Origin: Candidatus Micrarchaeota archaeon | GTDB taxonomy: Archaea > Micrarchaeota > Micrarchaeia > Micrarchaeales > CABMGC01 | Direction: 5' to 3' | Assembly (NCBI GenBank): GCA_028867115.1 | Contig: JAGWGY010000001.1 | Coordinates: 8,380 to 72,379 of the forward strand | DNA: 64,000 nt | Shown here: piece by piece, positions 11,520 through 59,276 of the stretch | Numbering within the stretch: the first letter of the stretch is position 1 | Layout of the letters: each line of letters begins with the position of its first letter | Notes under the pieces: model-generated | Told to the model about the DNA's origin: nothing | Database searches by the model: none | What the model saw: only the letters and a program-made list of their open reading frames with translations | Made by a program: the position numbers and the translations under genes

Positions 11520-11520
11520 A

Positions 11521-11531
11521 GGTTTATAAAT
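11521..11531 (+). promoter_or_regulatory. BRE/TATA-like promoter of 5S rRNA
   Basis: GGTTTATAAAT about 25 nt upstream of the inferred 5S 5' end. Confidence 0.5.
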
Positions 11532-11550
11532 TTTAAATCCTATGTAAATA

Positions 11551-11669: not shown

Positions 11670-11672
11670 TTT

Positions 11673-12695: not shown

Positions 12696-12714
12696 CAAAT
12701 CAACTTTTGAACGC

Positions 12715-13854: not shown

Positions 13855-13938
13855 ATAAAGGTATCAGTGGGGTTTGTCTAAATCGCCAGCTGACGCTACC
13901 CACCAGATGGTTTAAGTTGGTTGAGATTCAGTGCGGGA

Positions 13939-14406: not shown

Positions 14407-14407
14407 C

Positions 14408-14857: not shown

Positions 14858-14904
14858 ACAACCACTTCCTTAATCTTTTATACTTTGAATGAACAGCTTT
14901 CCTT

Positions 14905-28148: not shown

Positions 28149-28253
28149 CCAAACACTTGTTTTTGCTATAGTCTAACTATAAACCTTTTTATGCCTTACA
28201 ACTGCAACTGGGGGGCAAATATAGTGGGAACCGTAGGCGGCCATGAACAGAGA

Positions 28254-29888: not shown

Positions 29889-29999
29889 TGATAGCCCTAC
29901 ATATTTAATCCTTTTATTACTTTATCAACACCAGACAAATTAGTAATTGCCCCTATCTGCATATGGCCAGGTATGGGCGTGGTTTACCTGAGTGAATTC

Positions 30000-36520: not shown

Positions 36521-36609
36521 TGGGCCCAAGGGGATTTGAACCCCTGACATCTGGCTTTCTTACGGATTGATATAAGACCAGCGCTCTAACCAGGCTGAGC
36601 TATGAGCCC
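36521..36609 (-). tRNA. tRNA-Ile (anticodon UAU) with 14-nt intron at 37/38
   Basis: Minus strand GGGCTCA-TA-GCTC-AGCCTGGTTA-GAGC-G-CTGGT-CTTATA[TCAATCCGTAAGAA]A-GCCAG-ATGTC-AGGGG-TTCAAAT-CCCCT-TGGGCCC-A; 4-bp CTTA/TAAG helix flanked by 3-nt bulges (relaxed BHB); no encoded CCA. Confidence 0.8.
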
Positions 36610-43106: not shown

Positions 43107-43110
43107 TTAT

Positions 43111-44943
43111 TTGGCAAAGAGAGCAATAAATGATAAATGCTATGTTTACATAAACGGCAAGATACTCGGCTACGTAAAGGACGGGAGGGCGTACGCAAAC
43201 GAGATCAGGACCGCGAGGAGGGGAGGAGTACTCTCCGGAGAGGTGAACGTCTCATACGTCAAGAAGCTCAATGCAGTCCACATAAACACAGACAGCGGAA
43301 GGATCAGGAAGCCGTACATAATCGTCGAGGGCGGCAAGTCGAAGCTCACCCCAGAGCTGATCGAGAAGCTTCAGAAGAAGGAGGTTGACTTCAACTACCT
43401 GCTGAGGCACGGAGTCCTCGAGTACCTAGACGCTGAGGAGGAGGAGAACGCCCTTGTTGTCTTCAAGGAGGCTGATGCCACACCTGATACGACGCACCTT
43501 GAGGTCGACACAACTTCCATATTCGGATTCACGCTAAACACATCCCCATTCCCGGAGCACAACAACGCTGCAAGGCACGCGATGCTCTCGAACTTCATCA
43601 AGCAGAGCCAGGGACTCTACGCGACGAACTTCAACCTGAGGTTCGACTCGAGGGCGTACTTGCTTTTCTATCCGCAGGCCCCGATCGTGAGCACGGCGGT
43701 TTATGACGCCGCAAGGATGCAGCAGCACCCTAGCGGGCAGAACTTCGTTGTCGCGCTAACCACGTACTACGGATACAACATGGCAGACGCCATAGTGATA
43801 AACAAGGGCGCAGTTGACAGGGGGCTTGGAAGGAGCATGTTCTATAAGACATACACTGACGAGGAGAGAAGGTACCCTGGAGGCCAAAAGGACGTGTTCA
43901 GGGTTCCGCCTCCGACTGCAGAGGGGTATCTTGGAGAGCACGCCTACTCAAAGCTCAGCGAAGACGGGATAATCGAGCCCGAGACCACGGTCGAGGAGGG
44001 GGACGTACTCATCGGAAAGGTGGCGCCGCCTAGGTTCCTTGAGGAGAGCATCAGCGCAAGCGGGCTTGAGGAGAAGATCAGGGACGACTCGTCCACACTG
44101 AAGGCAGGAGAGCGCGGAGTCGTCGACAGCGTAGTGTTCACAGAATCAACAGGGGCGACGAAGGTCGTAAAGGTCAGGATAAAGAGCCTGCGAATCCCAG
44201 AGAAGGGGGACAAGTTTGCAAGCAGGCAGGGTCAGAAGGGAGTAGCAGCGTACATAGTGCCGCAGGAGGACATGCCTTTCAACGACCACGGAATAGTTCC
44301 GGACCTTTTGCTAAACCCGCACTCTGTACCTAACAGACTTACATTCGGGCACCTGCTTGAGGAGATCGCAGGAAAGGCTGGCGCGCTTTCGGGAAAGAAG
44401 ATTGACGGGACAGCATTTGCAGAGAAGGGATCCTCCAGAATTGAGGAATATGGAAAGACGCTGGAGGAGAACGGATTCGACAAGTTCGGGGACGAGACAC
44501 TCTATGACGGGATAACAGGCAGGAGGTTCAAGGCGAAGATATTCAACGGGATCGTATACTACAACAGGCTCTACCACATGGTCAGCAACAAGCTGCAGGT
44601 GAGAAGCCGCGGACCGGTACAGATACTCACCCACCAGCCTACGGAAGGAAAGGCAAGGCAGGGAGGTCTGCGATTCGGAGAGATGGAACGTGACGTTCTT
44701 GTAGGATACGGAGCAAGCCTGCTGCTCAAGGAGAGGCTGCTCGACCAGAGCGACAAGGCGACGGTGCTCATCTGCAAGGAGTGCGGGAACATCGGATATT
44801 ATGATTACATAAAGAGGACGGTTGTCTGCCCTATAGATGGCGGAACGGCGATGTCAGAGGTCGAGATAAGCTACGCTTTCAAGCTGCTGCTCGACGAGAT
44901 AAAGTCGATGCACATCTTCCCTGGGCTGAAACTGAAGGAGTGA
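43111..44943 (+). CDS. rpoB1: RNA polymerase subunit B' (Rpo2 C-terminal half)
   Basis: 610 aa; GDKFASRQGQKG, FGEMERD, C-terminal zinc ribbon CKECG...CP. Confidence 0.92.
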   Translation: MAKRAINDKCYVYINGKILGYVKDGRAYANEIRTARRGGVLSGEVNVSYVKKLNAVHINTDSGRIRKPYIIVEGGKSKLTPELIEKLQKKEVDFNYLLRHGVLEYLDAEEEENALVVFKEADATPDTTHLEVDTTSIFGFTLNTSPFPEHNNAARHAMLSNFIKQSQGLYATNFNLRFDSRAYLLFYPQAPIVSTAVYDAARMQQHPSGQNFVVALTTYYGYNMADAIVINKGAVDRGLGRSMFYKTYTDEERRYPGGQKDVFRVPPPTAEGYLGEHAYSKLSEDGIIEPETTVEEGDVLIGKVAPPRFLEESISASGLEEKIRDDSSTLKAGERGVVDSVVFTESTGATKVVKVRIKSLRIPEKGDKFASRQGQKGVAAYIVPQEDMPFNDHGIVPDLLLNPHSVPNRLTFGHLLEEIAGKAGALSGKKIDGTAFAEKGSSRIEEYGKTLEENGFDKFGDETLYDGITGRRFKAKIFNGIVYYNRLYHMVSNKLQVRSRGPVQILTHQPTEGKARQGGLRFGEMERDVLVGYGASLLLKERLLDQSDKATVLICKECGNIGYYDYIKRTVVCPIDGGTAMSEVEISYAFKLLLDEIKSMHIFPGLKLKE

Positions 44944-44947
44944 TTGT

Positions 44948-47500
44948 ATGCAGGCAGAGATAATAGACCATGTAAAATTCGGGATTCTTTCAGTGGACCA
45001 GATACGAAGGCTCAGCGTCGCAAAGCTCACCGTGCCTGACACGTACAACGAGGACGGCTACCCTATCGACGGAGGGCTGCTCGACCAGAGGCTTGGAGTT
45101 ATAGACCCGGGACTCATCTGCAAGACGTGCGGCGCTCGCGCAAAGGTCTGCCCAGGCCACTTCGGCCACATAGACCTTGTGAGGCCTGTCATCCACTCGG
45201 AATTCTCGAAGATCCTCTACCTGTTTTTGCAGTCAACATGCCAGCAGTGCCACAGGATACTGCTCAACGAGGAACAGGTCGAGCAGGTCAAGGGCAAGAT
45301 AAAGAACATAGTGGAGGCGGAGATAACGGACATCAACATAGGCACCGAGAGCGAGAGGATGGACGAGAGGGACACGATGTTCAAGAAGCTAAAGAGCATC
45401 AAGAAGTGCCCGCACTGCGGATCGGTGCAGCAAAAGGTCAAGTTCGAATCGCCCACATACTTCTATTTCGGAGACATCAGGCTCAAGCCTGACGAGATAA
45501 GGGACATGCTCTCAAAGGTCACAAACGATGACCTGCAGGTTCTGGGCATAGACCCGAGGACTAGCAGGCCGGAGTGGCTGATAATATCGGCGCTCCTTGT
45601 TCCGCCTGTAAATGTCAGGCCATCGATCACCCTCGAATCCGGTGAGAGGAGCGAGGACGACCTGACGCACAAGCTTGTCGACATAATGAGGATAAACCAG
45701 AGGCTAGAGCAGAACATAAACGCCGGCGCCCCTCAGATAATAATCGACGACCTATGGGAGCTGCTCCAGTACAACGTAACAACATACTTCAACAACGAGA
45801 CGCCAGGCATTCCTCCCGCAAGGCACAGGAGCGGAAGGGCGCTAAAGACCCTTGCGCAGAGGCTCAAGGGAAAGGAAGGCAGGTTCAGGTACAACCTGTC
45901 GGGAAAGAGAGTCAACTACTCGGCGAGAACGGTCATATCCGTTGACCCGTACCTTGACATCGACCAGGTCGGTGTACCGTTTGAAATAGCATCAAGGCTC
46001 ACAGTCCCATTCTTCGTAACGGCATGGAATCTCGATGCGGCAAAGGCGCTAGCGGAGAGGAAGGAATACCCAATGGTAATGGGGGTGACAAGCAAGGACG
46101 GCAAGAGGAAGAGGATCTCGGACATCAACAGGGAGGAGGTCGTGAAGGCGATAGGCATAGGGGACATACTTGAGAGGCAGGTCACGAACGGGGACATCGC
46201 GCTCTTCAACAGGCAGCCTTCGCTGCACAGGCCGTCAATCATGATGCACAGGATAAAGGTGTTGCCAGGCAAGACATTTAGGCTAAACTACTGCACAACC
46301 CACCCGTACAATGCCGACTTCGACGGAGACGAAATGAACCTGCACATCCCTCAGACACTTGAGGCACAGGCAGAGGCCGAGTACCTCATGTCGGTCAAGG
46401 ACCAGATCTTCTCGCCGAGGAACGGAGAGGCGATCATCTCGAACAACGAGGACGGCATAACGGGAGTGTACCTGCTTACAAACGATCAGACGAAGCTCAC
46501 AAAGGAGGAGGCTTCCCACCTGCTCAGCCTGGCGGAGATATACGAGCTGCCCGAGGCGGAGAAGAACGGCACATACGACGGCAAGGCGGTATTTTCTATG
46601 CTGCTCCCTAAGGGACTCAACTTCGAGCAGAAGACGAAGAGGGGGATGTTCAGGGTCAAGAACGGAAAGCTTGTGGAGGGAGTGCTTGCAAAGTCCACAT
46701 TCGGACTAGGCAGCAAGCTTCTTGCAAAGATATCCGCAGACTACGGCAACGACGTGCTAAAGGACTTCATCTCAAAGGCGAGCAGGGTAAGCTATGCATA
46801 TTCAACAACCCACGGAATCACCGTCGGCATAAAGGAGTACCTCATCACCCCGAAGATTGCGGAGAGCAGGGAGAGGATACTCAAGGAGACGTTCGGAAAG
46901 GTGAGCGCGCTTATCGAGCAGTACAGGAACAAGAAGCTCGAGTCGCTCATCGGCTACACGCTAAAGCAGTCCCTTGAGCAGCTGATAATGGCAGAGCTCG
47001 ATAGGGCAAGGGAAAAGGCAGGGGAGGAGATAGTGGCATACACCACTGTCGACAACCACGCAATAACCATGGTCAACGCAGGATCGAGGGGAAGCATTCT
47101 CAACCTTGTCCAGATGAGCATGCTTCTAGGCCAGCAGGCGACATCATCGGGAGGCAGGATCAAGCGCGGATACGGCACTAATAGGGTGCTCCCGCACATC
47201 AAGCCAGGGGACATCAGCCCGATCGCAAAGGGATTCGTGACTACTAGCTACTTCATGGGATTCGAGCCGATCGACATGTACATGCACGCGATAGGTTCAA
47301 GGACATCTGTGGTCTACAAGGCGATGCTCACCGCAAAGTCGGGTTACCTGCAGAGAAGGCTGATAAACGCGCTGCAGGACTACCAGATAGAGAAGGACCT
47401 GACAGTCAGGGACGTCCACGGCAACATCGTCCAGACAAGCTACGGCGGCGACTCGATAGACCCGACAAAGATCGACATAGCCAAGGTGGCAGAAGAGTGA
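44948..47500 (+). CDS. rpoA1: RNA polymerase subunit A' (Rpo1 N-terminal part)
   Basis: 850 aa; CKTCGA...CPGHFGHI, catalytic [10 protein letters not shown]. Confidence 0.93.
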
Positions 47501-47504
47501 TATC

Positions 47505-48554
47505 ATGGCAGATAAAAAAGACAGATTTATTGTGACTACAGGAGAACCGGTGGGAGTCATCGCTGCGCAGTCGATAGGGGAGCCTGGAACCCAGATGGTC
47601 CTCAGATCGTTCCACTACGCAGGAGTCGCATCATCCATAGCAACGTCTGGTCTGCCAAGACTCGTGGAGATCGTGGACACAAGGAAGAAGCCTGCGACCC
47701 CATTCTCATACGTATACCTGAAGGGCAAGGCTGCAAAGAACTTCGAGGACGCTGAGAAGGTCGTCAAGAAGATAAGCGAAGTGAGGGTAAATGACATCGC
47801 AAGGAGGATACTTGAGAACTTCTCAAAGGGCACGATACTCATCAAGCTCGACGACCAGAGGATGGAGGCGAACGAGCTGACCGCAAAGGGGGTCGCGTCC
47901 AAGATAGAGAAGCTGACAAAAATTGAGTGCAGCGCATCAGAGAACGCAATACTTGTAAAGACCCACACTAAGAACACCAAGCAGATAAGGAGCATGGCCG
48001 TCCAGATAGGAAAGCTCACCGTTAACGGCATAGAGAATGCGGGCAGGGCGGTGATAAAGCAGGACAAGGAGACTGGGGAGTTCTACATTGTAACAAACAA
48101 CAGCAACCTGGTCGGGATACTCGGCATCGAGGATGTGGATTCTTCAAAGATTTACACCAACGACATCTTCGAGATATACAGAGTATTCGGAGTCGAAGCC
48201 GCAAGGAATGCAATCGCAAGGGAACTCGACACAGTGCTGAGGGAACAGGGCATAAACGTGGACAAGAGGCACCTATTCATACTAGCTGACGCAATGACAC
48301 TCTCCGGAGGCATAAAGAACGTCGGAAGGCGCGGTCTGAGCGGCGAGAAGGAGTCAATATTCGCAAGGGCAGCATACGAGGAAACCGTAAAGCACCTGAT
48401 CAACGCAGCGGCTTTCGGGGAAAGGGACGACATGCGCGGCGTAACTGAGAACGTGCTAATAGGCAAGCAGATAATGCTCGGGACCGGGTCAGTCACGCTT
48501 GCAATAAAGAAGGAGGACCTTGCTAAGATCAGCGAGAAGAAGGGAAAGAAATAA
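47505..48554 (+). CDS. rpoA2: RNA polymerase subunit A'' (Rpo1 C-terminal part)
   Basis: 349 aa; [19 protein letters not shown]... Confidence 0.92.
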
Positions 48555-48603: not shown

Positions 48604-48825
48604 ATGAACGAGAGACCATTCGATCTTCTGAACAAGTCAATTGGACAGCAGGTCCTAATTAGGCTGAAGAACGGCACAGACATAAGGGGCAAGATGTCCG
48701 CATTCGACATCCACATGAACCTGGTGTTAGACAACGCGGAGGAGCTTGAGGACGGGAACCTCAAGACAAAGGTGGGCACGATACTTCTGCGCGGCGGGAA
48801 CATCCTCTGGGTCTCCCCTGCCTGA
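48604..48825 (+). CDS. Sm-like archaeal protein (SmAP/LSm)
   Basis: 73 aa; Sm1 (VLIRLKNGTDIRGKMSAFDIHMNLVLDNAEE) and Sm2 (ILLRGGNILWVSP). Confidence 0.88.
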   Translation: MNERPFDLLNKSIGQQVLIRLKNGTDIRGKMSAFDIHMNLVLDNAEELEDGNLKTKVGTILLRGGNILWVSPA

Positions 48826-48880: not shown

Positions 48881-48908
48881 TTGCCCTACGTATCTCTTAT
48901 GTTCGCTT

Positions 48909-48980
48909 GGGCTCCTGGCGCAACGGTAGCGCGCCTGCATGGCATGCAGGAGGTTGCGGGTTCGAATCCCGCGGAGTCCA
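48909..48980 (+). tRNA. tRNA-Ala (anticodon GGC)
   Basis: GGGCTCC-TG-GCGC-AACGGTA-GCGC-G-CCTGC-ATGGCAT-GCAGG-AGGTT-GCGGG-TTCGAAT-CCCGC-GGAGTCC-A; G3:U70 Ala identity pair; 3' end plus trailer (CGCGGAGTCCAGAC, 48970-48983) is the core of three downstream repeats. Confidence 0.9.
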
Positions 48981-48987
48981 GACCTTT

Positions 48988-49596
48988 TTATTTGGTGAAA
49001 TTTATTGATAGCGTTGCAACTCTAGTAAGGTATGCCTCCCAGGAATCTAAAATTGACGAATTGTAAGCTAAAGTCCCATCTAAATTATTTACAATTATAT
49101 TAGATACTTTACTAGATCCGTCAATCTCTACAACGCCCCTACCAGCTATTGAAAAAACCGACATTGGCACGTAGGGACCTAAGGCGTTCAGTTTTGGCAG
49201 CGGAGGTGCGGGTGAGAATGTGGTATTTATTGGTTGCTTGACAACCCAAGGATAACCGGACTGTGATTCTAAATTTGATAGTTGTACAAATTGTTGAAAA
49301 TATGACCTTGCATCATTATCGTCTGTAAATGCCCTATAGTATACACTTATGTCATCAGGTATTGAATCATTAGAATTTATTCTCATAAGCTGCTGGGTGC
49401 AATAAAAGATTTGCCCGGCGTTTGTTGATGTATTAGTGCAATAGGGATTTATCGAAGCCGAATAATTACCATTAATTATCCCGATTTTTGATAAATCAGG
49501 CAAAGGTCGAGGATGATAACTTAAAAAATTAAAGTAGAAAAGTACTGAAATAATTATTATTGCAATAAGCAAAAATACGATAAGTTTTGGATTCAC
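48988..49596 (-). CDS. membrane-anchored hypothetical protein (AT-rich module)
   Basis: 202 aa; N-terminal TM IVFLLIAIIIISVLFYF; N/S/I-rich composition; a 60-nt line in this gene (49081-49140) has about 30% G+C by my count. Confidence 0.5.
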   Translation of the reverse strand: MNPKLIVFLLIAIIIISVLFYFNFLSYHPRPLPDLSKIGIINGNYSASINPYCTNTSTNAGQIFYCTQQLMRINSNDSIPDDISVYYRAFTDDNDARSYFQQFVQLSNLESQSGYPWVVKQPINTTFSPAPPLPKLNALGPYVPMSVFSIAGRGVVEIDGSSKVSNIIVNNLDGTLAYNSSILDSWEAYLTRVATLSINFTK

Positions 49597-49655
49597 ATCA
49601 TCAACTAAATTTTGCGTTTGAATATATAAACCTATAAACTATTATATAAAACACC

Positions 49656-50234
49656 ATGTCAACAAAAACATTCAGATACATCGTTTCCATTTTTAGTATA
49701 TTCATTGGATTATTCTTCGTGCAATCTTCGCCAAATTACAATGTTCTGATTTTTATTTTGGGTATTTTGCTAATAATTGGCGGCGTGATAGTCTCTTTGG
49801 GAACGAGCAATAAACTTGGTGGCTGGCTAGTTATCATTGGGGGGATAATATATTTGTTGGGAAAAGGGCCTGGCATCTTTAGCTCGTTTCCATATTGGCT
49901 CTCAGTCTACGGGCAACCAAATTTATTGTACATGTTTTATAATTTTGGTCAATTAATAGCACCATTCGTCATTGGTGTATTGGTACTCTGGAAAAAATCC
50001 GCAGCGTTTAGGATACTTGGGGGCAGTCTATCTATATTGCTCTTTATCTGGTTAAATATATTCTATAATGGGTTTAGTCCTGGTTGTAAAGCGCCAGATG
50101 TTATGGTGTGGCTGCTAAATTGCTTCTCCGTATATTATGCGTGGGTTTTATTTTTACTCGGGGGTATTGTGATTATTTTGGCAGCTTGTAAACCCATTTT
50201 TAAGCTATTTACTACTAAATACTATCAAAAATAA
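49656..50234 (+). CDS. polytopic membrane protein (AT-rich module)
   Basis: 192 aa, about 6 hydrophobic helices; stop codon lies inside repeat R1 left arm. Confidence 0.5.
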   Translation: MSTKTFRYIVSIFSIFIGLFFVQSSPNYNVLIFILGILLIIGGVIVSLGTSNKLGGWLVIIGGIIYLLGKGPGIFSSFPYWLSVYGQPNLLYMFYNFGQLIAPFVIGVLVLWKKSAAFRILGGSLSILLFIWLNIFYNGFSPGCKAPDVMVWLLNCFSVYYAWVLFLLGGIVIILAACKPIFKLFTTKYYQK

Positions 50235-50280
50235 CCCCAACCCGACGTGGGAAGTTCGCGGAGTCCAGACTTTCTATTTA
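50221..50280 (+). repeat. tRNA-Ala 3'-end-derived direct repeat R1 (att-like)
   Basis: ACTATCAAAAATAACCCCAACCCGACGTGGGAAGTT-CGCGGAGTCCAGAC-TTTCTATTTA; core 50257-50270 identical to 48970-48983. Confidence 0.8.
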
Positions 50281-52478
50281 ACTGTTGACATTTCAGCCAA
50301 CCTACTAAGCAATTGCTGCACATCCTTCGTGCCGTGGAGGTTGAACCGCGCATACGACTGTGCCATCCCTACCCTTATAGAATATGCGCTTTTCGGCAGT
50401 GACTTGAACGTATCCTCGTCAGTATAATCATCGCCTATCGCAAGAATGAAATCGGGGCTGTGCAAATTTATGAAATGCGCCGCTGCTACGCCCTTGTTGA
50501 CGCCTGAGTTCTTAACCTCGATTATCTTGTTCCCCTTACACACCTGTACATCCGCGTTTGCGGTAATCTTACTGAGATTGTCAAAAAGTTCTGAGACTCT
50601 GAGTGATGCAAATTCCGATTCAGACTTTCTATAGTGCCATACAATAGAGAATTCCTTCTCTTCTACAAACGACCCTGGCAGCCTACCTGCGTAGTCGTTT
50701 ATTATGGGCATTATCATCGGCTTCCATTCTGCCGTCAGCGGTCTAATGAGGCGCCAGTCTGCGCCGCGTTCTTTTATAAAAACTCCGTGCTCGGCAACCA
50801 ATGAAACGCCGATTCCCGAAAACCATTTGTCTAGCGTAGCCTTGTCCCTCCCGCTGGTCACAACGACCTCGTTTTTAGGGTCGCTGCACAGTGACCTTAG
50901 CATGTCAAGGGTCTGCTTTGTGGGCGACGCTTTCCTAGGTTCCTCTGTGAATGGGACCATCGTTCCATCGTAATCCAGCAGCAGGAGTGCCTTCCCGGCC
51001 TTCCCATGGTCGGACAGCAAGGCGGCTTCATTGCCGCCAAGAAGCTTTGCATTGAAGACTTCCTGCATCTCCTTAAGCTTTGCAAGCTCCTTCATGAAAT
51101 CATTCCCCCATCTTACTATGTCATATGACCTCACCCTCTCCTGCATCGCAATCATTCGGCGCATCTGCTCCTCTATGGGCATGGTGAGCGCCGTTTCCAG
51201 CGCATTGCATATCTCGCCGGGGTGGTTTGGGTTGACCATCACCGCTTCCCCGAGTTCTTTGGATGCTCCGGCCATCTCGCTGAGCACGAGAACGCCGGGG
51301 GATTCTAGCTTGCTTGCAACATATTCTTTTGCGATAAGGTTCATGCCGTCACGCAAAGGCGTCACCAATGCCACATCTGCCATATTAAATAGAGCGGAAA
51401 GGGTGCTCGAATCGAGGAACCTATACTGATATGTGATAGGTGCCCAGTCGATTGCACCGAACCTGCCGTTTATTCTCCCTACCTTCTCATCGATCGCCAT
51501 CTTCAGCTTCTTGTATTCCCTGACTCCCTCCCTTGATGGCACGACCACTAGTACAAGGCGGACCCTTCCCCGCATCTGCGGGTGCCTCTCCAAGAAAAGA
51601 TCATAGCCGTTTAGCCTGTTCAGGATTCCCTTTGTGTAATCCAGCCTGTCTATCGAGAAGATTATCTTCGCATCACCTATGCTCTTTTTGAGTTTGTCCT
51701 TCTCCTTTGCGACAGAATCGCTCCTGGAGAGCGCCTGCAAATTGCCGAAATCTATGCCCATTGGGAATGCATCAACCCTCTTTAGCTCGGAGTCCGGCCC
51801 CTCTATGTATCCAAGATTGCTGTCATATCCTAGCAACCTTGAGACGCTAGTCACAAAATCCTGCATGTAATCGTACGTGTGGAACCCTATCAGGTCTGCG
51901 CCCAAAAGCCTCGACAGCAGAGCCCTGCCCCATCCGCCCGGCAGGAGCCTGAAGACTTCATAAGACGGGAACGGTATATGCAGGAAGAATCCTATCCTTG
52001 CTTGCGGCCTGCGCCCCTTTAGCATGGCGGGCAGCAGCATCAGGTGGTAGTCGTGGATCCAGACAATGTCGCCAGGCTGCACGATGCCGGCCACTTCCTC
52101 GCAAAACCGCTCGTTAACCTTGCGGTAGGCTTCCCATTCGTCATCGTCGTAATTGGCGTACTCTGTAAAGTAATGGAAGAGTGGCTGCAGGGTGCTGTTG
52201 CAAAAGCCGTTGTAGAAGCCCTCATAGTCCTTTTCGGCAAGGAAGACCGGGGAACATTTGGACTTGCCTGCCATCCTCCTTATGTCCTTCCTGTCGCTAT
52301 CGTCATCAAATACCCCGCCCGGCCACCCCACCCAGAGGTAATCATCGATTTTTGCAGCCTTGAGATAGGATTTTATTCCACTTGCAAGCCCTCCAGCCGC
52401 TTCGGAAACGGCGATCTTCCCATCAGGGCCCTTTGTGAAAGATAGCGGCAGCCTGTTGGACACTATTATGTACCTCAT
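50274..52478 (-). CDS. bifunctional trehalose-6-phosphate synthase/phosphatase (OtsA-OtsB fusion)
   Basis: GT20 motifs [39 protein letters not shown]; C-terminal [12 protein letters not shown] ... [10 protein letters not shown]; ATG 52478 preferred (GTG 52487 in ORF track). Confidence 0.9.
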
Positions 52479-52500
52479 CCATGCCACCGTCGCACTTTTC

Positions 52501-52524
52501 CTGAGCCAGAACTATCTGGCTCAG
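52501..52524. other. perfect 10-bp inverted repeat (hairpin) between the DUF1059 stop and the ots start
   Basis: CTGAGCCAGA-ACTA-TCTGGCTCAG; overlaps the stop codon at 52521-52523; 22 nt upstream of the ots ATG on the minus strand. Confidence 0.7.
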
Positions 52525-52694
52525 GCGTCCTTTATTGCAGCGCTGACTTTTGCCTTAGTGGCATCATCAAGCTGCGCCATGTTGTGGGCGACCCTGGCAT
52601 GGTCTGCGATCTTCGGCATCAGCTCCTCCACAGTTGCCCCCTCTGCCGTAAAATCACATGCAAAACCTATGTCCCTGCACACAAACTTCTTCAT
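52521..52694 (-). CDS. DUF1059-like small protein
   Basis: 57-aa ORF below the ORF-track cutoff, hand-translated: MKKFVCRDIGFACDFTAEGATVEELMPKIADHARVAHNMAQLDDATKAKVSAAIKDA; matches the DUF1059 pattern (F-x-C-x-D-x-G-x-x-C-x-F ... H-A-x-x-x-H). Confidence 0.6.
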   Translation of the reverse strand: MKKFVCRDIGFACDFTAEGATVEELMPKIADHARVAHNMAQLDDATKAKVSAAIKDA

Positions 52695-52760
52695 GACAAT
52701 CGTAAGGCTTGGCGAATCGGACGTATATATCGCTTTTCGATCTGGGACAGAATTGCGCGC

Positions 52761-53174
52761 TCAGCCGAGCAGCATGTCTCGCATCTTGAGCAGCGCCAGG
52801 TACACCTGGCCGTCGTTGCGGAGCCTCTCTATGCTCTTGTAACCGAGGTGGATCCCGCTGATGGAGGAGAAAAGCGTGAGCATATATGACATCCCCCTGT
52901 TGCTCATGCCCATAAGCTGCTGCACCAGGAGTATTATCAGCTTCTGCTCAAGGTCCAGGCTCGGCTTCCTGCCCCTTCCCAAACTTGGCCTAACCGATAT
53001 CGATGCGTCACGTATTGTTGGCATGAGTATCCTAATGGTCTTCTTTATCTGGCTTGACCTTTTCTGCCTATAAGTCCTCCAGTCGCTTATTGCATACCTC
53101 GGAAGCACCCGCTCCCTGACTATGGACTCTATCTCGCATAGCAGCGCGTTGATGCCTATCAGAGCTTCTTCCAT
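52761..53174 (-). mobile_element. IS-type transposase N-terminal (HTH) fragment, catalytic domain absent
   Basis: 137 aa; GRGRKPSLDLEQKLIILLVQQLMGMSNRGMSYML resembles the HTH region preceding DDE domains in IS4/IS5-like transposases; ORF stops after it. Confidence 0.4.
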
Positions 53175-53269
53175 GGTTCCTATGCGCTAGGAAAAATTAA
53201 ATTAGTTATGTCCAAATGCGCGGCAAGCAATGCATAAACTTTTATGATTTTGGCTGGATAATAGAATCG

Positions 53270-54187
53270 ATGCAGATGCCTGCTCAAAAGCCAAACCCCC
53301 ACATCGGGTACTTCGTTCTATTCCTAGTCGCGCTCGCACTGGGCATATCCCTAGCGCTGCTCTCCGGCAAGGTGCTTGCGGGGGTGGGCATAACCTCGCC
53401 TCAGTATCTGGAGTATGCTGATATCCTCATAACCGTGGCGTTCGGCTATGCCGCGCTCAAGCTGCTCTCAGATTCGATAATCGAGTATGGGAAGAGGAGG
53501 CCGCGGATAGACGAGAGGCTGCTAGCAAAAGTCGTGCGCATCATAGGGTATGTGATAATAGTGCTGTTGGTGATGTCGATCTTTAGGATAGACCTGACCG
53601 GGGTGCTGATAAGCGCGGGCTTTTTGGGCATAGTGATAGGTCTTGCTGCTCAGTCCACATTGGGCAACCTCTTTGCAGGCATCTCGATGATGGCCGCAAA
53701 GCCGTTTGCCAACGGGGACAGGGTAACTTTCTCCTCATGGCAGTACGGCGCGCTGCCCCCATCCTACGCACACAGGTTCCTCAGGCTTGGCTTTTCAGGC
53801 ATCATAGAGGAGATAGACCTTATGTATACGAGGCTGAGGCAGGATGACGGCACAGTGCTGTATGTGCCAAACGGCGTGATGAATGGCGCGGCAATAATAA
53901 ACTACTCGGTATCTGATGTCATAGACGTGAATTTCAGGCTTGAGCTCCCTCTGGAGGCCGACTTTGCGTCTTTTAGGTCAAAAGTGCTCAAGGAGATTGA
54001 CAGGCACAGCAGGCTTCACAAGGCCATAAAGGGAAAGCCCGAAGTCATAATAACCGACATAGCCTCACAGATGTACGGGGTGGATGTGATAGCTAGAAGC
54101 GAGATACGCAGCGAAGCGTACGTAAAATCCGAAATAGCTGCTATCGTGCTGCGCATAGCCTCAAAAACCATGGAGGGGGGAAAATAG
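53270..54187 (+). CDS. mscS: small-conductance mechanosensitive channel (MscS family)
   Basis: Three TM helices then LGNLFAGISMMAAKPFANGDRVTF; start at ATG 53270 (ORF track 53216). Confidence 0.8.
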   Translation: MQMPAQKPNPHIGYFVLFLVALALGISLALLSGKVLAGVGITSPQYLEYADILITVAFGYAALKLLSDSIIEYGKRRPRIDERLLAKVVRIIGYVIIVLLVMSIFRIDLTGVLISAGFLGIVIGLAAQSTLGNLFAGISMMAAKPFANGDRVTFSSWQYGALPPSYAHRFLRLGFSGIIEEIDLMYTRLRQDDGTVLYVPNGVMNGAAIINYSVSDVIDVNFRLELPLEADFASFRSKVLKEIDRHSRLHKAIKGKPEVIITDIASQMYGVDVIARSEIRSEAYVKSEIAAIVLRIASKTMEGGK

Positions 54188-54204
54188 GGAATACGAACAG
54201 CATT

Positions 54205-54272
54205 TACTATCAAATGATATCAAAAATAACCCCAACCTGACGTGAGAGGTCCGCGGAGTCCAGACCTTTTTA
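54205..54272 (+). repeat. tRNA-Ala 3'-end-derived direct repeat R2 (att-like)
   Basis: TACTATCAAATGATATCAAAAATAACCCCAACCTGACGTGAGAGGTC-CGCGGAGTCCAGAC-CTTTTTTAA; core 54252-54265. Confidence 0.8.
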
Positions 54273-54318
54273 ACCCAAAAGCTTAAAATATCATAACTGA
54301 CGTAATATTAGTGACTAA

Positions 54319-54528
54319 ATGGGCAGAAAATACACGATAATCATAACCAAGGGAGAAGTCGCATATGTCGCTTATTGTGAGGAGCTCGGAATAGCGAGCC
54401 AGGGAAAGAGCGTAAAGGAGGCAAGGAAGAACATAAAGGAGGCAATAGAACTATACACTGAAGAGGCAAAAGACTCGAAGCTCGCTAAGTCAGCTTTGCC
54501 CATAGTGACAACGATAAGCGTGGGATGA
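54319..54528 (+). CDS. hicB: HicB-like antitoxin (UPF0150 fold)
   Basis: 69 aa; YTIIITKGEVAYVAYCEELGIASQGKSVKEARKNIKEAIELY. Confidence 0.65.
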   Translation: MGRKYTIIITKGEVAYVAYCEELGIASQGKSVKEARKNIKEAIELYTEEAKDSKLAKSALPIVTTISVG

Positions 54529-54532
54529 TGAG

Positions 54533-54760
54533 ATGGGCAAACTTCCCATCGTTTCGGCGCTAGATGTTGTAAAGGTGCTCAGAAAGAACGGCTTTAGCAT
54601 ATCAAGGCAGAGGGGAAGCCACATAATACTTATAAAATTTGTTGATGACAAGAAACGGATAGTTGTCGTCCCTAACCACAGGCAGATTGACCCTGGTACA
54701 CTGCTTTCCATAATAGCCCAATCTGGCATGCTAAAAGACGAATTCCTTGATTCTTTGTGA
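54533..54760 (+). CDS. hicA: HicA-family mRNA-interferase toxin
   Basis: 75 aa; VVKVLRKNGFSISRQRGSHIIL...VVVPNHRQIDPGTLLSIIAQSGM. Confidence 0.75.
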   Translation: MGKLPIVSALDVVKVLRKNGFSISRQRGSHIILIKFVDDKKRIVVVPNHRQIDPGTLLSIIAQSGMLKDEFLDSL

Positions 54761-54773
54761 GGATGATAACATT

Positions 54774-54832
54774 CACTACCAAAAATAACCCAAACCTGAC
54801 GTGGGAGGTTCGCGGAGTCCAGACCTTTTTAT
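54774..54832 (+). repeat. tRNA-Ala 3'-end-derived direct repeat R3 (att-like)
   Basis: CACTACCAAAAATAACCCAAACCTGACGTGGGAGGTT-CGCGGAGTCCAGAC-CTTTTTAT; core 54811-54824. Confidence 0.8.
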
Positions 54833-54865: not shown

Positions 54866-55087
54866 TTAATTACAGTTTGAGCGAGTTGGTGAGGAGAATT
54901 TTGGATAGCTATAATTGAACAGTACAACATTGTGAAAATTACATTCTAGTTCTTGTGTTGTCAAAAACACCGCGTAAGCATATGCCGTTTGAATACCATA
55001 AATGTATTTGGTCATAATATAATTTGAGTAGATTCCAGATATTACGAGCACCAATGATACTGCCAAAAATATCCCGTAAGCAGACAT
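54866..55087 (-). CDS. small membrane protein, last gene of pilus operon
   Basis: 73 aa; N-terminal hydrophobic helix; abuts the upstream gene. Confidence 0.4.
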   Translation of the reverse strand: MSAYGIFLAVSLVLVISGIYSNYIMTKYIYGIQTAYAYAVFLTTQELECNFHNVVLFNYSYPKFSSPTRSNCN

Positions 55088-55471
55088 TCAATCACCAACT
55101 TCAATGCAGAGCGTGCTATTCCTTTTGCCATAATAAATACATGTTTGTACCAAAGGTGAGTTGACATAGCCTAAGCTAATATTAGGTGCCTTTGCTGCAA
55201 TATTTACTTTGTATAATTTGTTATATATCAGAAATAAGTTGCTTAAACATGTAGAATTACTTGATGATAGGTTCTCAACACATAACTTCGTAGAGCCATT
55301 AAAATCTAGCTGATTGATAAGATCATATATGGCAAAGTTGCTTATCAATGCACTCTTCTGTGTAAAGAGGGTTAAAGTTGCAGAGTTCATGGCATTGGTA
55401 GTATAAGTAATAGCAAAAATTGCCAGCAAGATAGAGGTAACTGATTCGGCCACTGCAAATTGCGCCTTCAT
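55088..55471 (-). CDS. pilin-like protein (degenerate class III signal)
   Basis: 127 aa; MKA-QFAVAESVTSILLAIFAITY. Confidence 0.5.
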   Translation of the reverse strand: MKAQFAVAESVTSILLAIFAITYTTNAMNSATLTLFTQKSALISNFAIYDLINQLDFNGSTKLCVENLSSSNSTCLSNLFLIYNKLYKVNIAAKAPNISLGYVNSPLVQTCIYYGKRNSTLCIEVGD

Positions 55472-56737
55472 TTAAGCACCTTTTACGTTAATATAGGATC
55501 CAAGGTATTGAAGAGTCATATTTTCTATGCTAAGCCCATTAAAAGATGCATTTATGATGTATGAGAAAGGATATTGTGAGTAGCAAGTATAATTCTCTAT
55601 GTTGAAGGTACAGCCTTTGCCTAGAATTCCTGAGCTATTGAGCAGCTTATTTACTGTATTAATGTAGCTAAATCCCATGGATTCCAAAGCAGATGCGATA
55701 TCTGGCGAGACTTCTGATCCATTGTACGCACTAAGTTGGGAATATAGGGAGTTCTTATCGGATAGGTATGCCTGATAATTTGAGGAATTTACGGGTGAGA
55801 TCCCTTTGGGACCATCGAGGAAGTTTTGGTTTATTTGTTGTGCAATACCGCTCGCATTCTCTACTGACGCATTTCCTACATCCAGATTGTTTAATGTAAG
55901 CCTGCTGGATTTATTGTTCGAGATATTAGAGCGGATAGTAAAATTTTCTGAGGCTAATTTCAAAGTGAAGTTATAATGCAACGAGGCGCCTGCTTGCCCA
56001 GCGGACATATCCTGGTAGCCACTATCTACAGGGATAAAGCAGTAGGTTTCGGTATAGTAGCTACTTGTTTGGTAACAAACGTCTGAGAATACTGATACCG
56101 ACCACTCTCCACCAGAACCGCACTGTTGTCGTGTAGGCCCCCACCCATTTGCATAGGTACAGTGGGAGAATACCTGCATTTGAATTATGTTGCCGGCATC
56201 TAATAGTGGATATACGTATGACTCGTTTCTATTTAGTATAGTCGCTGTTAGCTGATTAGTCTGCAGTTGTATACCTTGTTTAGTTCCATAGGTGGAATAT
56301 GTAGTGTTTATTGTTCTTCTAATGTTATTGCACGTGGTCGTCGAATTTACGCTTATTTGGTTATACCCCATATTAAGAGGAGTAAAATAGATATCAAAAA
56401 CCTCAATGCCGCTTAAGGTGGAATTTAGCGAATCTTGTGAAAAAAGTACAGATTTAGAGATAAAATTTAGTCTTATTGACCCATTACACCCATATGCAAC
56501 GAGCCGCATTATGTTTGGGTTATCAAGAACTGCGCTCTGTGGTACAAAAACCCTTACCTCCATATTCTGCGGGTAAATAATTTGTGGACCGTATGTAGAT
56601 GCGTTAAAAGAACTAAAATTATTGAACTTAGATTGGTTAGAATGGATCGTTTGGCTGTAAGATGAGACCATTATAACAATCAGTACACTTATCGTGCTTG
56701 CAGCAAGTAGGAACTCTACACTAGCCTGCATTTTCAT
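55472..56737 (-). CDS. large pilin-like protein (class III signal plus about 390-aa N/S/T-rich domain)
   Basis: 421 aa; MKM-QASVEFLLAASTISVLIVIMV. Confidence 0.6.
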   Translation of the reverse strand: MKMQASVEFLLAASTISVLIVIMVSSYSQTIHSNQSKFNNFSSFNASTYGPQIIYPQNMEVRVFVPQSAVLDNPNIMRLVAYGCNGSIRLNFISKSVLFSQDSLNSTLSGIEVFDIYFTPLNMGYNQISVNSTTTCNNIRRTINTTYSTYGTKQGIQLQTNQLTATILNRNESYVYPLLDAGNIIQMQVFSHCTYANGWGPTRQQCGSGGEWSVSVFSDVCYQTSSYYTETYCFIPVDSGYQDMSAGQAGASLHYNFTLKLASENFTIRSNISNNKSSRLTLNNLDVGNASVENASGIAQQINQNFLDGPKGISPVNSSNYQAYLSDKNSLYSQLSAYNGSEVSPDIASALESMGFSYINTVNKLLNSSGILGKGCTFNIENYTCYSQYPFSYIINASFNGLSIENMTLQYLGSYINVKGA

Positions 56738-57101
56738 GACTTAACACCAGGATTATGCTCTTTCCATTTAGAGTGACTATTCGGCAAACCCCCATAGTTT
56801 CACAGCCAGCTGGAGAAGAGTTGGAAAGCTGTAGGATTTGCGATTGTATCAGGTTTTCTGAGGAGTAATTACTAATGAAAGAAATTAATCCAGAATTATT
56901 TTCTGGATAACTATCGATAACAGAAGCGATTATCTGCGAGATAGTGTAGAGCTTGAGCTGCATCACACTGTTTGTGGAAAGAGAGGATAACGAGAGCGTT
57001 TGCATATGCCAGGTGTAAAGTAATAGAAGCACTGCTGTCGAGACTATTGGCAAAGAGATAGTAAGATCTAGTGAAATGAGTGCACCAATAATTTTTGACA
57101 T
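56721..57101 (-). CDS. minor pilin-like protein
   Basis: 126 aa; MSKIIGA-LISLDLTISLPIVSTAVLLLL. Confidence 0.45.
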   Translation of the reverse strand: MSKIIGALISLDLTISLPIVSTAVLLLLYTWHMQTLSLSSLSTNSVMQLKLYTISQIIASVIDSYPENNSGLISFISNYSSENLIQSQILQLSNSSPAGCETMGVCRIVTLNGKSIILVLSHENAG

Positions 57102-57310
57102 GAAATCAACCTTAAATCAACTACACAACTGGCACACGAGGCGGCCAATTCTTCGGTATATGTAGCAGCGCTACAGGACGCATTCTTTTCAATCCCAATA
57201 ACTTTAGTTGCTCCAAAGTGGAGTTTTGAGAGCAGCAACAGCGAGGATAATGCAAATAACATAACTATTGACATACCTACAATAACCTCTAAACTAATCT
57301 GAGCTCGCAT
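57068..57310 (-). CDS. type IV pilin-like protein (QxSxE)
   Basis: 80 aa; MRA-QISLEVIVGMSIVMLFALSSLLLL. Confidence 0.6.
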   Translation of the reverse strand: MRAQISLEVIVGMSIVMLFALSSLLLLSKLHFGATKVIGIEKNASCSAATYTEELAASCASCVVDLRLISCQKLLVHSFH

Positions 57311-57693
57311 TACGACACCCTGTTTAGTATGTAATATTCTCCCTTGTAGGAAATGCTTAGGACCGATCCCCCTCCATCAGGACAAAATACCCCCTTAGGG
57401 ATAGAAATGCCATCTGCAATGCTTAGATTTCCATAAATTGTGGAAAGGACGCCAGATTTCACGTATGCACTGCACATCCCGCTTGGGAGATATGCCGAGA
57501 ACTCCTGGTAGGCTACTCCTGTGAGTGCTGCAGAGTTTAATTTAGAGACCATGGATGAGACCTGGTATTCACTGAGCAGGTAGGTGACGTGCACCATCCC
57601 AACACGTAGCGTGTTTGCAATGAACAGCAGTGATACGCCCGAGAGGGAGATGTAAGCAAGTACCTCAAGTGAGAGCTGCGCCCTCATCATCAC
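57310..57693 (-). CDS. type IV pilin-like protein (QxSxE)
   Basis: 127 aa; MMMRA-QLSLEVLAYISLSGVSLLFI. Confidence 0.6.
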   Translation of the reverse strand: MMMRAQLSLEVLAYISLSGVSLLFIANTLRVGMVHVTYLLSEYQVSSMVSKLNSAALTGVAYQEFSAYLPSGMCSAYVKSGVLSTIYGNLSIADGISIPKGVFCPDGGGSVLSISYKGEYYILNRVS

Positions 57694-57944
57694 TACACCA
57701 CATTAGATGAAAGCGAGGATAGCTCATGGGATATTGCACCGGATATGCTCATGTTGCTCCCATTTACCATTATATTTGAAGTCGCGGCACCTTTCAGCTT
57801 CACCACCATGGCCAAGGCTATCGCTATTACAAGACTAGCCGCTGCAAGCATCATTATGTACTCCAATGATCCTTGCCCCTTCTTTGACCTCGCCACTGCG
57901 AGCAACGCTTTTGCTTCCAAAAGGAATCTTATTCTATTTTCCAT
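57693..57944 (-). CDS. small type IV pilin (candidate major pilin)
   Basis: 83 aa from internal ATG 57944: MENRIRFLLEAKALLAVARSKKG-QGSLEYIMMLAAASLVIAIALAMVV; the longer ORF-track form overlaps the upstream gene. Confidence 0.6.
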   Translation of the reverse strand: MENRIRFLLEAKALLAVARSKKGQGSLEYIMMLAAASLVIAIALAMVVKLKGAATSNIMVNGSNMSISGAISHELSSLSSNVV

Positions 57945-57952
57945 TTTCCCAC

Positions 57953-58606
57953 CTATATTACATAAGAAGAAAAGCCAAAGGATGCAGATTGCAATGCATA
58001 TGCTATGCCCGCTAAGGGGGCAACATATTGCAGAATCTCGGAAATTCGTAGCCAAGGCTTGATTAGGATTCTGTTTATGCAAAGGACAATTATGATGTAG
58101 AGCATGCTTATCGATCTTATACCCCATGTCGTCACGGCTTTGCCAGTTCCAATCAATGAGCTGGAAGCTATACTTGATGCAATTCCGCTGAATAATGGGA
58201 AGAAAAGGATTACACCTATCACTGACAGTGTCTGCATCCCACTTACTTTGGCGTTCATCATGTTCCTAAGTTCGCTCTTCTGCAATTGTAAGGAGTGGAA
58301 ATCTTCCAGATTTTTCTCTATTTCAACCCCATTAGATGCACCTAAATGAAGTATTTTCAGAAGATTGTACATTTCCGCCCCGAATTTTTGTGGTATTTCT
58401 GCGCCAAAGTCGGACATCCTCCAACGTTTTGCGAGAACACATAGTGTTTCGTATTTAACATCATTAGAGACTGCCGCCTCGAGCGCCTTTATTGCAGAAT
58501 GCGAGGCCCTATAGTTATAGAGTACGCTTGAGCTGAGGGAGATTATTTCGGACAGGCTATCGCTATTTGCATTGATTAATACGGATGATCTAGACCACAT
58601 TTTCAA
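57953..58606 (-). CDS. pilus platform membrane protein, half 2 (single T2SSF/TadC-like domain)
   Basis: 217 aa; helical cytoplasmic N-part then 3 TM segments; follows half 1 with a 17-nt overlap. Confidence 0.5.
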   Translation of the reverse strand: MKMWSRSSVLINANSDSLSEIISLSSSVLYNYRASHSAIKALEAAVSNDVKYETLCVLAKRWRMSDFGAEIPQKFGAEMYNLLKILHLGASNGVEIEKNLEDFHSLQLQKSELRNMMNAKVSGMQTLSVIGVILFFPLFSGIASSIASSSLIGTGKAVTTWGIRSISMLYIIIVLCINRILIKPWLRISEILQYVAPLAGIAYALQSASFGFSSYVI

Positions 58607-59276
58607 TTAATCTCCTCGATAACGCAGTAACGCTTGTAGCATAGACAAAAGGCAGTACAATTAACAGCCCAATTGACAACCCGATAAGGCTAATGCTCGT
58701 TTGGCTGATAACAGTCGAACCAATATACCCAAAAATGAGAAATGAGGGCAATATTGCCGATAAAAACATGCTAATTGTAGAATAGCGCTGAATGGAATCT
58801 GATGCTGTTGATAGCCGCGCCTTTCGTTTTTGTAAAGAGGAGACAACAAATCTGCTTACTTTATCATATAAATCTCCAGAAGTGGGGATTGTGTTTTCAC
58901 CCCCAATAACCTCTATGAATTCTGCGTTTATTGCATTAAGGAGCGTATCCCCCAGGCGGATCCTGTTCTTTATCCTAATTAGGTTTGGTGGGCTGCTTGC
59001 CCCGAAAGACCTTTCTACCATCTCTTTTGAGGTTGCATTGCGATATTTGTAATAGATGATAGAGGATAGGAACTGCAGGACTTGGCCTTTAAGTATTGCT
59101 TTTTGGTAGAGGTCTGCAAGCAATCCCATGGCCCTTAACAGGAATAGCAGGAGAAATGCGCAGATTAGGAGGATATCGGTTTCAAGAAAGAGGCTTGTTA
59201 TCCCATTAATTACGACTATCAAAAAACAGACTAGGAGCGAAAGTGCAAGTGCGCTAATTAATTGATGATATTTCAT
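58590..59276 (-). CDS. pilus platform membrane protein, half 1 (single T2SSF/TadB-like domain)
   Basis: 228 aa; TM-helical-TM topology; ATGA overlap with the ATPase gene. Confidence 0.5.
   Translation of the reverse strand: MKYHQLISALALSLLVCFLIVVINGITSLFLETDILLICAFLLLFLLRAMGLLADLYQKAILKGQVLQFLSSIIYYKYRNATSKEMVERSFGASSPPNLIRIKNRIRLGDTLLNAINAEFIEVIGGENTIPTSGDLYDKVSRFVVSSLQKRKARLSTASDSIQRYSTISMFLSAILPSFLIFGYIGSTVISQTSISLIGLSIGLLIVLPFVYATSVTALSRRLIENVV

Follow-up and report, generated by a model that had tools for sequence, protein, structure and literature searches.

Cis-mobilizable elements (CIMEs) of bacteria are flanked by attachment (att) sites and carry no integrase, and their tandem accretion has been described (PMC5704250, summarising Pavlovic 2004 and Bellanger 2011). 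In archaea, arrays that re-use one att site are known (PMC6563490), and the att sites found there measure between 8 and 243 bp, one of them being a 14-nt site free of stem-loops (PMC8371274). The suicidal integrases of archaea carry attP inside their own gene, which is split on integration, and excision of integrated archaeal elements by a related integrase of exogenous origin has been observed (PMC8371274). Here we describe a 64-kb stretch of DNA from a Candidatus Micrarchaeota metagenome-assembled genome (MAG), below called the window, in which the 3' end of a tRNA-Ala(GGC) gene recurs downstream of the gene and bounds three small units, C1 to C3, at positions 48984-54824; two MAGs of the same species carry a fourth unit, C0. 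Our reading, to which we assign a probability of roughly 0.55, is that this region is an array of small non-autonomous att-bounded cassettes whose recombination is carried out by a tyrosine recombinase encoded outside it.

The closest analogue of this locus is the CIME or tandem accretion of bacteria, which occurs at the 3' ends of tRNA genes or fda in Streptococcus and others, combined with an integron-like logic. Like CIMEs, the units are att-flanked, lack genes for integration or transfer, stand in tandem at the 3' end of their target, and would owe their movement to the recombinase of another element. However, CIMEs are decayed integrative and conjugative or integrative and mobilizable elements, usually several kb in size and with remnants of their origin, whereas the units described here measure 0.56 to 4 kb, are gene-tight, and hold no remnant. 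In addition, viral, genome, metagenome, phage, and plasmid collections yielded no autonomous element related to them, and the host is a DPANN archaeon with no conjugative partner in the sequence examined. With the tRNA-targeted island arrays of archaea and bacteria (Islander-type islands; arrays noted in PMC6563490), the locus shares an intact tRNA gene at one end, displaced 3' fragments of it as direct repeats at each boundary, a foreign GC content of some units, and repeats that mark the limits of presence/absence polymorphism. Such arrays normally have a tyrosine integrase beside one att site, while none is encoded in the four units here, and a single short conserved site is instead common to all of them. 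Of the features examined by which a tRNA-integrated island is recognised, only an integrase gene in the unit is lacking at this locus.

A preliminary description of the window had noted that the end of the tRNA-Ala gene recurs in direct orientation, and this proved correct: the 14-mer CGCGGAGTCCAGAC is present in four exact copies, all on the plus strand (48970, 50257, 54252, and 54811), a number reached in 0 of 100 dinucleotide shuffles. It comprises the last 3 nt of the T-stem, the 7-nt 3' strand of the acceptor stem (GGAGTCC), the discriminator A, and the trailer GAC. At copies 54252 and 54811 the identity with the tRNA locus lengthens to 21-22 nt (CGCGGAGTCCAGACCTTTTTA), and at copy 50257 the 14-nt core is followed by TTTCTATTT. 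Because the identity passes the end of the mature tRNA into the trailer and includes no CCA, gene DNA rather than mature tRNA must have been duplicated. The identity segment at the tRNA locus (48970-48990) is the probable crossover region.

Each downstream core is the end of a longer site. Aligned with one another, the four sites (C0 included) form one block of ~62 nt that extends from CATTTACTATC to CTTTTTA and has the same distal and proximal limits in all four, with unrelated flanks. The block consists of an arm of ~41-52 nt and the core of 14-21 nt; the arms are 78-90% identical to each other, and two of them contain small internal duplications of a TACTATC-like motif. The element-side arm had been described as common to the three downstream copies, in agreement with a 23-nt arm pattern that matches three times in 64 kb, only at these copies (0 matches expected). 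Arm plus core is absent from the rest of the window (~58 kb with dozens of gene ends) and from all other loci fetched, which excludes a generic dispersed repeat; loci with homologues of the cassette proteins have neither arm nor core. Searches of genome_contigs, viral_contigs, and metagenome_contigs with the arm and arm-plus-core patterns gave no true match, and a BLAST comparison of the island with phage and plasmid collections returned only similarities to the tRNA and to otsA. Three further matches were judged to be due to chance: two pattern matches (in L003 and L004) lie inside a coding region, and a find_repeats match (D3, 55059-55075) considered as an extra degenerate site lies within an open reading frame (ORF) and has no core. 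It had also been proposed that the motif GGAGGTT in the arm matches the variable-loop region of the tRNA, as if the T-arm had been deleted. The literal match stands (7/7 in copy 54811, fewer in the others), but the T-arm deletion is not statistically secure, and the homology was rejected after a free local alignment did not rise above shuffles (121 to 1464 of 2000).

What the site is not can be narrowed down from its folding and coding properties. DNA folds of the four sites on both strands were no better than shuffles in seven of eight cases (minimum free energies of -2.7 to -3.9 kcal/mol, z -0.5 to +1.1), the marginal exception being the minus strand of site C0 (-7.1 kcal/mol, z -1.87, 9/200 shuffles). 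Rfam at E<=1 found tRNA only, with no match at the repeat copies, and on these grounds we rejected attC-like, tRNA-like, and small RNA readings of the site. The copies were likewise rejected as split or half tRNA genes of the kind found in Nanoarchaeum, since they hold 3 T-stem nt plus the 3' strand of the acceptor stem, without a T-arm and without an Rfam tRNA match. A minus-strand frame through the arm reads KKVWTPRTSHVRLGLFLIV, and the variable columns of the arm are distributed 8/4/0 over its three phases (8/12 at third codon positions), a bias that is not significant (p about 0.06). This frame has no start codon and runs for ~20-50 codons before a stop, and the arms differ by 10-11-nt indels in their distal part, so that the arm was rejected as a coding sequence. 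The phase bias may be chance or, as a faint hint, a trace of an ancestral attP inside a gene.

Two MAGs of the same species, L001 (GCA_028867775.1) and L002 (GCA_028867695.1), are 98.8-99.8% identical to the window and align with it gap-free except for one insertion of 1,457 bp directly after the tRNA. This comparison with related genomes, proposed in the preliminary description, thus revealed a difference of one whole cassette. The insertion, C0 (38.5% GC), contains an ORF of 146 amino acids (aa) and a gene for an S-adenosylmethionine-dependent methyltransferase; it sits between the tRNA and C1 and terminates in an arm and core of its own, beyond which the sequence continues exactly as it does after the tRNA in the window. 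The limits of the indel are exact, as both BLAST alignment blocks overlap on the 21-nt repeat CGCGGAGTCCAGACCTTTTTA, and the C0 junction is the one expected from recombination between two core copies. This strain indel bounded precisely by the 21-mer strengthens the earlier interpretation of the locus as a footprint of serial site-specific recombination that left integrase-less modules with a shared arm.

The strains differ little in the cassettes next to the tRNA. C0 and C1 together show 1 single-nucleotide polymorphism (SNP) in 2,744 nt (none between the C0 copies of L001 and L002, and 1 among the C1 copies of the three strains), as compared to 11 SNPs in 3,139 nt of upstream core genes (p=0.008 against C0 plus C1) and 70 in the 3,995 nt of C2 (p=6e-15). 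The GC content of C0 and of C1 (36%) is also well below that of the window (50%) and of the upstream flank (53%). With their few SNPs, the two low-GC cassettes next to the tRNA look younger than the divergence of the strains, and SNP number and GC content both fit a recent arrival at the tRNA-proximal end. In C2, 58 of the 70 SNPs are specific to L001 and form a block within 50790-54251 that is confined to the cassette; the strains are mosaics shaped by recombination, possibly through exchange of whole cassettes. We also observed that the start of C3 is nearly invariant among the strains, like C0 and C1, and that 10 SNPs specific to L002 cluster in rpoA'/rpoA'' (46757-47807).

More distant relatives share the tRNA-Ala gene, but not the repeats, and the array is therefore lineage-specific. 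The synteny of rpoA'', LSm, and tRNA-Ala is kept in L005-L008 (~80-83% RpoA'' identity) with a near-identical tRNA, and neither a second copy of the tRNA-Ala 3' end nor the arm was found at these loci. In L007, a homologue of the pilus operon that follows the array is located 3.5 kb beyond tRNA-Ala on its downstream side, the genes between them being unrelated. This makes the pilus operon the ancestral right neighbour of the tRNA and 48984-54824 the inserted material, in line with the preliminary description. The spot after tRNA-Ala is variable in the L007 species as well, by a different route: by eye, translations of the 3.5-kb gap resemble a radical-SAM/SPASM-like fragment, a pentapeptide-repeat protein, a methyltransferase, and a phosphoesterase, and the gap holds no tRNA-fragment repeats. 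The same locus (REEA36, 11328-15562) has a 219-aa gene between LSm and tRNA-Ala.

The cassettes are packed tightly with genes (Table 1). Only 3-4 nt separate the core from the first gene (its stop codon) in C1 and C2, as compared to 53 nt up to the start of hicB in C3 and 112 nt up to the first ORF of C0; at the other end, the last stop codon falls inside the arm in C1, where it belongs to the 192-aa gene, and 5-15 nt before the site in the other cassettes. This packing leaves no room for decayed integrase genes. The two proteins of C1 are ORFans, membrane-bound or secreted, without a match in Pfam, NCBIfam, or PHROG, and for the 202-aa protein no homologue outside the species was found among 5.8 billion proteins. 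The OtsA/OtsB fusion of C2 has its closest homologues (63-69% identical) exclusively in non-cassette contexts. Its 137-aa partner had been taken for a truncated helix-turn-helix fragment of a transposase, which turned out to be mistaken: it has no match in Pfam, NCBIfam, or PHROG, and its homologues are full-length proteins of 144-146 aa that head a Micrarchaeota operon composed of the 14x-aa gene, DUF1059, and a sugar-phosphate synthase/phosphatase. The same order of 14x-aa gene, DUF1059, and synthase is found at ordinary chromosomal sites in other Micrarchaeota (L021-L026), with OtsAB as the enzyme in C2 and a sucrose-phosphate-synthase-like or GT4 enzyme elsewhere. As its gene order is that of a conserved chromosomal operon, C2 is best understood as an osmoprotection module and not as the decayed backbone of a mobile element. 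Both the 14x-aa protein and DUF1059 may regulate compatible-solute synthesis or act as partners in it. One of these chromosomal loci (L021, 12327-13187) contains a 286-aa DDE_Tnp_1 transposase gene that is absent at the same place in the collinear L022-L024 and represents an insertion sequence polymorphism adjoining a PIN toxin pair.

Table 1. Features of the tRNA-Ala locus and its cassettes (window coordinates unless another contig is named).
Feature	Position	Strand	Size and GC content	Evidence	Remarks
rpoA'	44948-47500			Pfam	Left flank, conserved
rpoA''	47505-48554			Pfam	Left flank, conserved
LSm gene	48604-48825	plus		Pfam	Left flank, conserved
tRNA-Ala(GGC), without encoded CCA	48909-48980	plus		Rfam RF00005, 65.6 bits; ARAGORN 48908-48981	Left anchor (attB/attL side)
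Core in tRNA locus	48970-48990	plus		Overlap of the BLAST alignments of the window with L001/L002	CGCGGAGTCCAGAC + CTTTTTA
Site C0	L002 4553-4617				Arm TACTATCAAAAATAACCCCAACCTCACGTAAGAGGTT, core CGCGGAGTCCAGAC; sister strains only
Cassette C1	48984-50270		1,287 bp, 36% GC		Two divergent genes
C1: 202-aa ORFan	48988-49596	minus			N-terminal hydrophobic segment
C1: 192-aa hydrophobic protein	49656-50234	plus			Apparently multi-pass membrane protein
Site C1	50205-50277	plus			Arm CTATTTACTACTAAATACTATCAAAAATAACCCCAACCCGACGTGGGAAGTT, core CGCGGAGTCCAGAC, then TTTCTAT
Cassette C2	50271-54265		3,995 bp, 51.5% GC		Host-like GC content
C2: OtsA/OtsB fusion	50274-52487	minus		Pfam	Trehalose-6-phosphate synthase/phosphatase
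C2: DUF1059	52521-52694	minus		Pfam	
C2: 137-aa protein	52761-53174	minus			Conserved operon partner
C2: MscS-type mechanosensitive channel	53216-54187	plus		Pfam	
Site C2	54201-54272	plus			Arm CATTTACTATCAAATGATATCAAAAATAACCCCAACCTGACGTGAGAGGTC, core, then CTTTTTA
Cassette C3	54266-54824		559 bp, 43.5% GC		
C3: HicB-like antitoxin	54319-54528	plus		Pfam HicB_lk, weak; PHROG HicB-like 4.1e-07	
C3: HicA toxin	54533-54760	plus		Pfam HicA 3.1e-18; PHROG toxin 3.4e-13	
Site C3	54770-54831	plus			Arm CATTCACTACCAAAAATAACCCAAACCTGACGTGGGAGGTT, core, then CTTTTTA; attR-like end of array
Type IV pilus-like operon	54866-60766	minus		Pfam	Right flank, outside array; class III signal peptide protein, T2SSE ATPase
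Site sequence					CATTTACTATCAAAAATAACCCCAACCYSACGTRRGARGTY

Two other observations concern the window away from the array. An 89-nt ARAGORN prediction at 36521-36609 (minus strand), "tRNA-Tyr (ata)", looks by eye like a tRNA-Ile(UAU) with anticodon TAT and an intron of ~14 nt after position 37; no repeat of its 3' end occurs in the window. Two tandem paralogues of ~550 aa (26526-28172 and 28257-29921, minus strand) combine a hydrophobic segment at the N-terminus with long Ser/Thr-rich tracts, have no Pfam match, and are probably surface proteins.

The preliminary description had found no integrase between 48.9 and 60.9 kb. Our Pfam scan agrees with this and extends the absence to the whole window: covering all stop-to-stop ORFs of >=90 aa after removal of overlapped ones (44.9-63.8 kb and all other ORFs), it revealed no recombinase or transposase domain in the 64 kb. 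The scan covered all but the rpoB'' segment at 43096-44940, which is annotated as RNA polymerase subunit B on the orthologous contig of L001. None of the four units contains an integrase gene or a remnant of one. A different arrangement is seen at a locus of L018 (GCA_021817325.1, 3693-4756) that encodes a 65%-identical OtsAB homologue; there, a tRNA-Arg(CCG) is directly followed by a 298-aa Phage_integrase gene and then by four unannotated genes just upstream of OtsAB, and a displaced tRNA fragment (attR) was not found at this locus. If this MAG is a relative, the lineage has classical tRNA-linked integrases.

From these features we infer a mechanism in which the crossover position, the action in trans, the class of recombinase, and the circularisation of the cassettes are all proposed rather than observed. 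The cassette unit would comprise one to four genes with a ~62-nt recombination site at the right end. A tyrosine-type recombinase from elsewhere in the genome or from a virus or plasmid would bring a circular cassette's site together with the core at the tRNA gene, and the crossover would take place within the shared CGCGGAGTCCAGAC(CTTTTTA). The tRNA would be regenerated and stay intact, the new cassette would adjoin it, and an arm-core junction would come to lie to the right of each cassette. Repeated rounds would stack cassettes with the newest nearest to the tRNA, and recombination between any two direct copies would excise one or more of them. In this reading, site-specific recombination built the array and would still be reshuffling it. 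The data themselves show the direct repeats that bound the cassettes, one sharply limited site on unrelated cargo, the tight packing of the genes, a polymorphism of a whole cassette with its breakpoints in the core, and the absence of a recombinase from the 64 kb.

Several points weigh against this reading. No recombinase was identified in the sequence covered, which comprises 64 kb of the genome and the orthologous contigs. The C0 difference between the strains could just as well stem from a deletion, through slippage or homologous recombination involving the 21-nt repeats, and parsimony favours a loss of C0 in the window lineage because C0 is present in both L001 and L002 and the window is closest to L002. 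Within the species, neither a circular junction nor a site emptied of all cassettes was seen; Logan contigs of three runs showed no alternative junction, and one contig ends inside site C3. The conservation of the arm could simply reflect common descent, with four site sequences in all, and the candidate 11-6-11 dyad within the site (see below) is weak. Finally, the host-like GC content of C2 and the chromosomal location of its operon in relatives are odd for an incoming element, though the operon could have been captured.

More tentatively, the array may represent integron-like gene capture in Micrarchaeota that works without a resident integrase, with the tRNA 3' end as the fixed acceptor and free-standing mini-cassettes, made up of cargo and a conserved ~62-nt site, that would be inserted, excised, and swapped among strains in trans; we consider this less likely than not. 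The recombinase acting in trans would then come from a virus, a plasmid, the mobilome of the host archaeon, or a housekeeping Xer. As in an integron, a fixed site is followed by compact cassettes that each have their own site and lack a recombinase of their own, one of the cassettes carries a toxin-antitoxin pair, and those next to the fixed site (the tRNA-proximal ones) look youngest. The differences are equally clear. Upstream of the array lie LSm, rpoA'', and rpoA' and no intI, the fixed site is a tRNA 3' end, and the sites are conserved in sequence and unstructured, unlike attC sites, which are imperfect palindromes that form single-stranded hairpins and keep their structure rather than their sequence. 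Integron cassettes are mostly promoterless, share one orientation, and are read from Pc, whereas the genes of C1 are divergent and C2 has three genes on the minus strand and one on the plus strand. Three defining features of an integron (an adjacent intI, attC hairpins, and a single orientation) are thus absent here.

The most serious rival explanation, which we nevertheless regard as rather unlikely, is that the cassettes are dead relics of once-autonomous, integrase-bearing elements that integrated serially and lost their backbones, leaving attR sites behind, with C0 lost by a recombinase-independent deletion between the 21-nt repeats. Tandem arrays re-using an att site are known in archaea (PMC6563490), decay to att-flanked remnants is the accepted origin of CIMEs (PMC5704250), and both the lack of a recombinase in the 64 kb and the parsimony of the three strains speak for this scenario. 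However, it would require four independent decays to arrive at the same ~62-nt boundary and at gene-tight cargo, without leaving an integrase pseudogene or fragment or any non-coding space that could hold one. Moreover, a 559-bp HicAB unit and a host-like osmoprotection operon are unlike trimmed viruses or plasmids, and the arms would be free of selection in such relics, yet are still 78-90% identical.

It seems improbable that the host's dimer resolvase XerA or a paralogue moves the cassettes via a dif-like dyad, in the manner of integrative mobile elements exploiting Xer (IMEX) and the pdif modules of Acinetobacter. Xer modules resemble the cassettes in being recombinase-less, bounded by short sites, and commonly endowed with toxin-antitoxin pairs, as is also the case for pdif modules, whose sites alternate in orientation. 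The repeats described here are all direct and tied to the 3' end of a tRNA. An 11-6-11 dyad of dif geometry, ACCCCAACCTC ACGTAA GAGGTTCGCGG, can be found in the site, and a role of Xer would account for the lack of a dedicated integrase nearby; archaeal dif sites consist of two 11-nt inverted repeats and a 6-nt spacer (PMC8371274). However, the symmetry of the dyad is weak (8 of 11 positions in C0, 7 in C3, 6 in C2, and 5 in C1) and barely above chance, as 197/5000 shuffles reach 8. Furthermore, most of the dyad falls outside the segment that the site has in common with the tRNA gene, and its 6-nt spacer differs between sites (ACGTAA, ACGTGG, and ACGTGA) and from the T-loop of the tRNA, which would be unfavourable for strand exchange.

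Even less probable, in our view, is that the blocks are merely a repeated functional element, such as a bidirectional terminator or insulator including the terminator region of the tRNA, that was spread by local duplication. Both strands of the block carry oligo-T (plus strand, CTTTTTA; minus strand, TTATTTTTG), genes end at the blocks from both directions, and a terminator scan detected a hairpin followed by a T-run on the minus strand in the arms of C3 (54791-54812) and C1 (50235-50252). Yet such a role does not predict a strain indel bounded by the core, and elsewhere in the window, over ~58 kb, the gene ends lack the block. The region has no excess of terminator-like sites (6 against 6.6 expected), and the hairpin energies are better than those of shuffles only in the marginal case of the minus strand of C0. 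The block may in addition act as a bidirectional terminator or transcriptional insulator between cassettes, a role that is compatible with recombination.

A true integron with IntI and attC hairpins, or an origin of the arms as int(N)/int(C) fragments of SSV-type suicidal integrases, is largely refuted for this window: the array logic with its toxin-antitoxin cassette and the 8/4/0 phase distribution in the KKVWTPRTSHVRLGLFLIV frame, as expected if attP was once intragenic (PMC8371274), are outweighed by the absence of any integrase domain, also beside the tRNA, by sites that do not fold like attC, by genes in both orientations with their own intergenic spacers that could hold promoters, and by a minus-strand frame with no start codon, 10-11-nt indels, and a phase bias of p about 0.06. 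What the locus shares with SSV-type elements (PMC8371274) is integration at a tRNA gene and, by our inference, the dependence of an integrated copy on the complete integrase of another element for excision; it differs in the lack of int(N)/int(C) fragments and in a core of 14-21 nt as compared to 40-50 bp. The orders for which that review lists SSV-type elements are Sulfolobales, Thermococcales, and Archaeoglobales, plus Desulfurococcales and Methanosarcinales in parentheses; DPANN archaea are not among them (PMC8371274).

The preliminary description had considered cassette accretion at a tRNA gene as an undescribed mechanism, which is not the case given the CIMEs and tandem accretion of bacteria (PMC5704250) and the arrays re-using an att site in archaea (PMC6563490). 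What is new here is a DPANN array at the 3' end of a tRNA gene in which all cassettes are miniature, lack an integrase, and bear a site. If the cassettes are relics, the locus is a clean example of tRNA-targeted integration that left adaptive cargo (trehalose synthesis with MscS, and HicAB) in a reduced genome. If they are mobilised in trans, it would be an archaeal counterpart of CIME accretion or integron-type capture without a linked integrase, and the short site could be used to fish for the recombinase and for further cassettes in metagenomes. How DPANN archaea with their very small genomes gain and lose genes is poorly understood, and this locus provides a concrete and testable case in which the acceptor and the ~62-nt site are defined, the cassettes number at least four, and co-occurring strains show standing variation. 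Should the view of integron-like gene capture be true, a symbiont genome of ~1 Mb could in this way sample genes for osmoprotection, toxin-antitoxin systems, and surface proteins.

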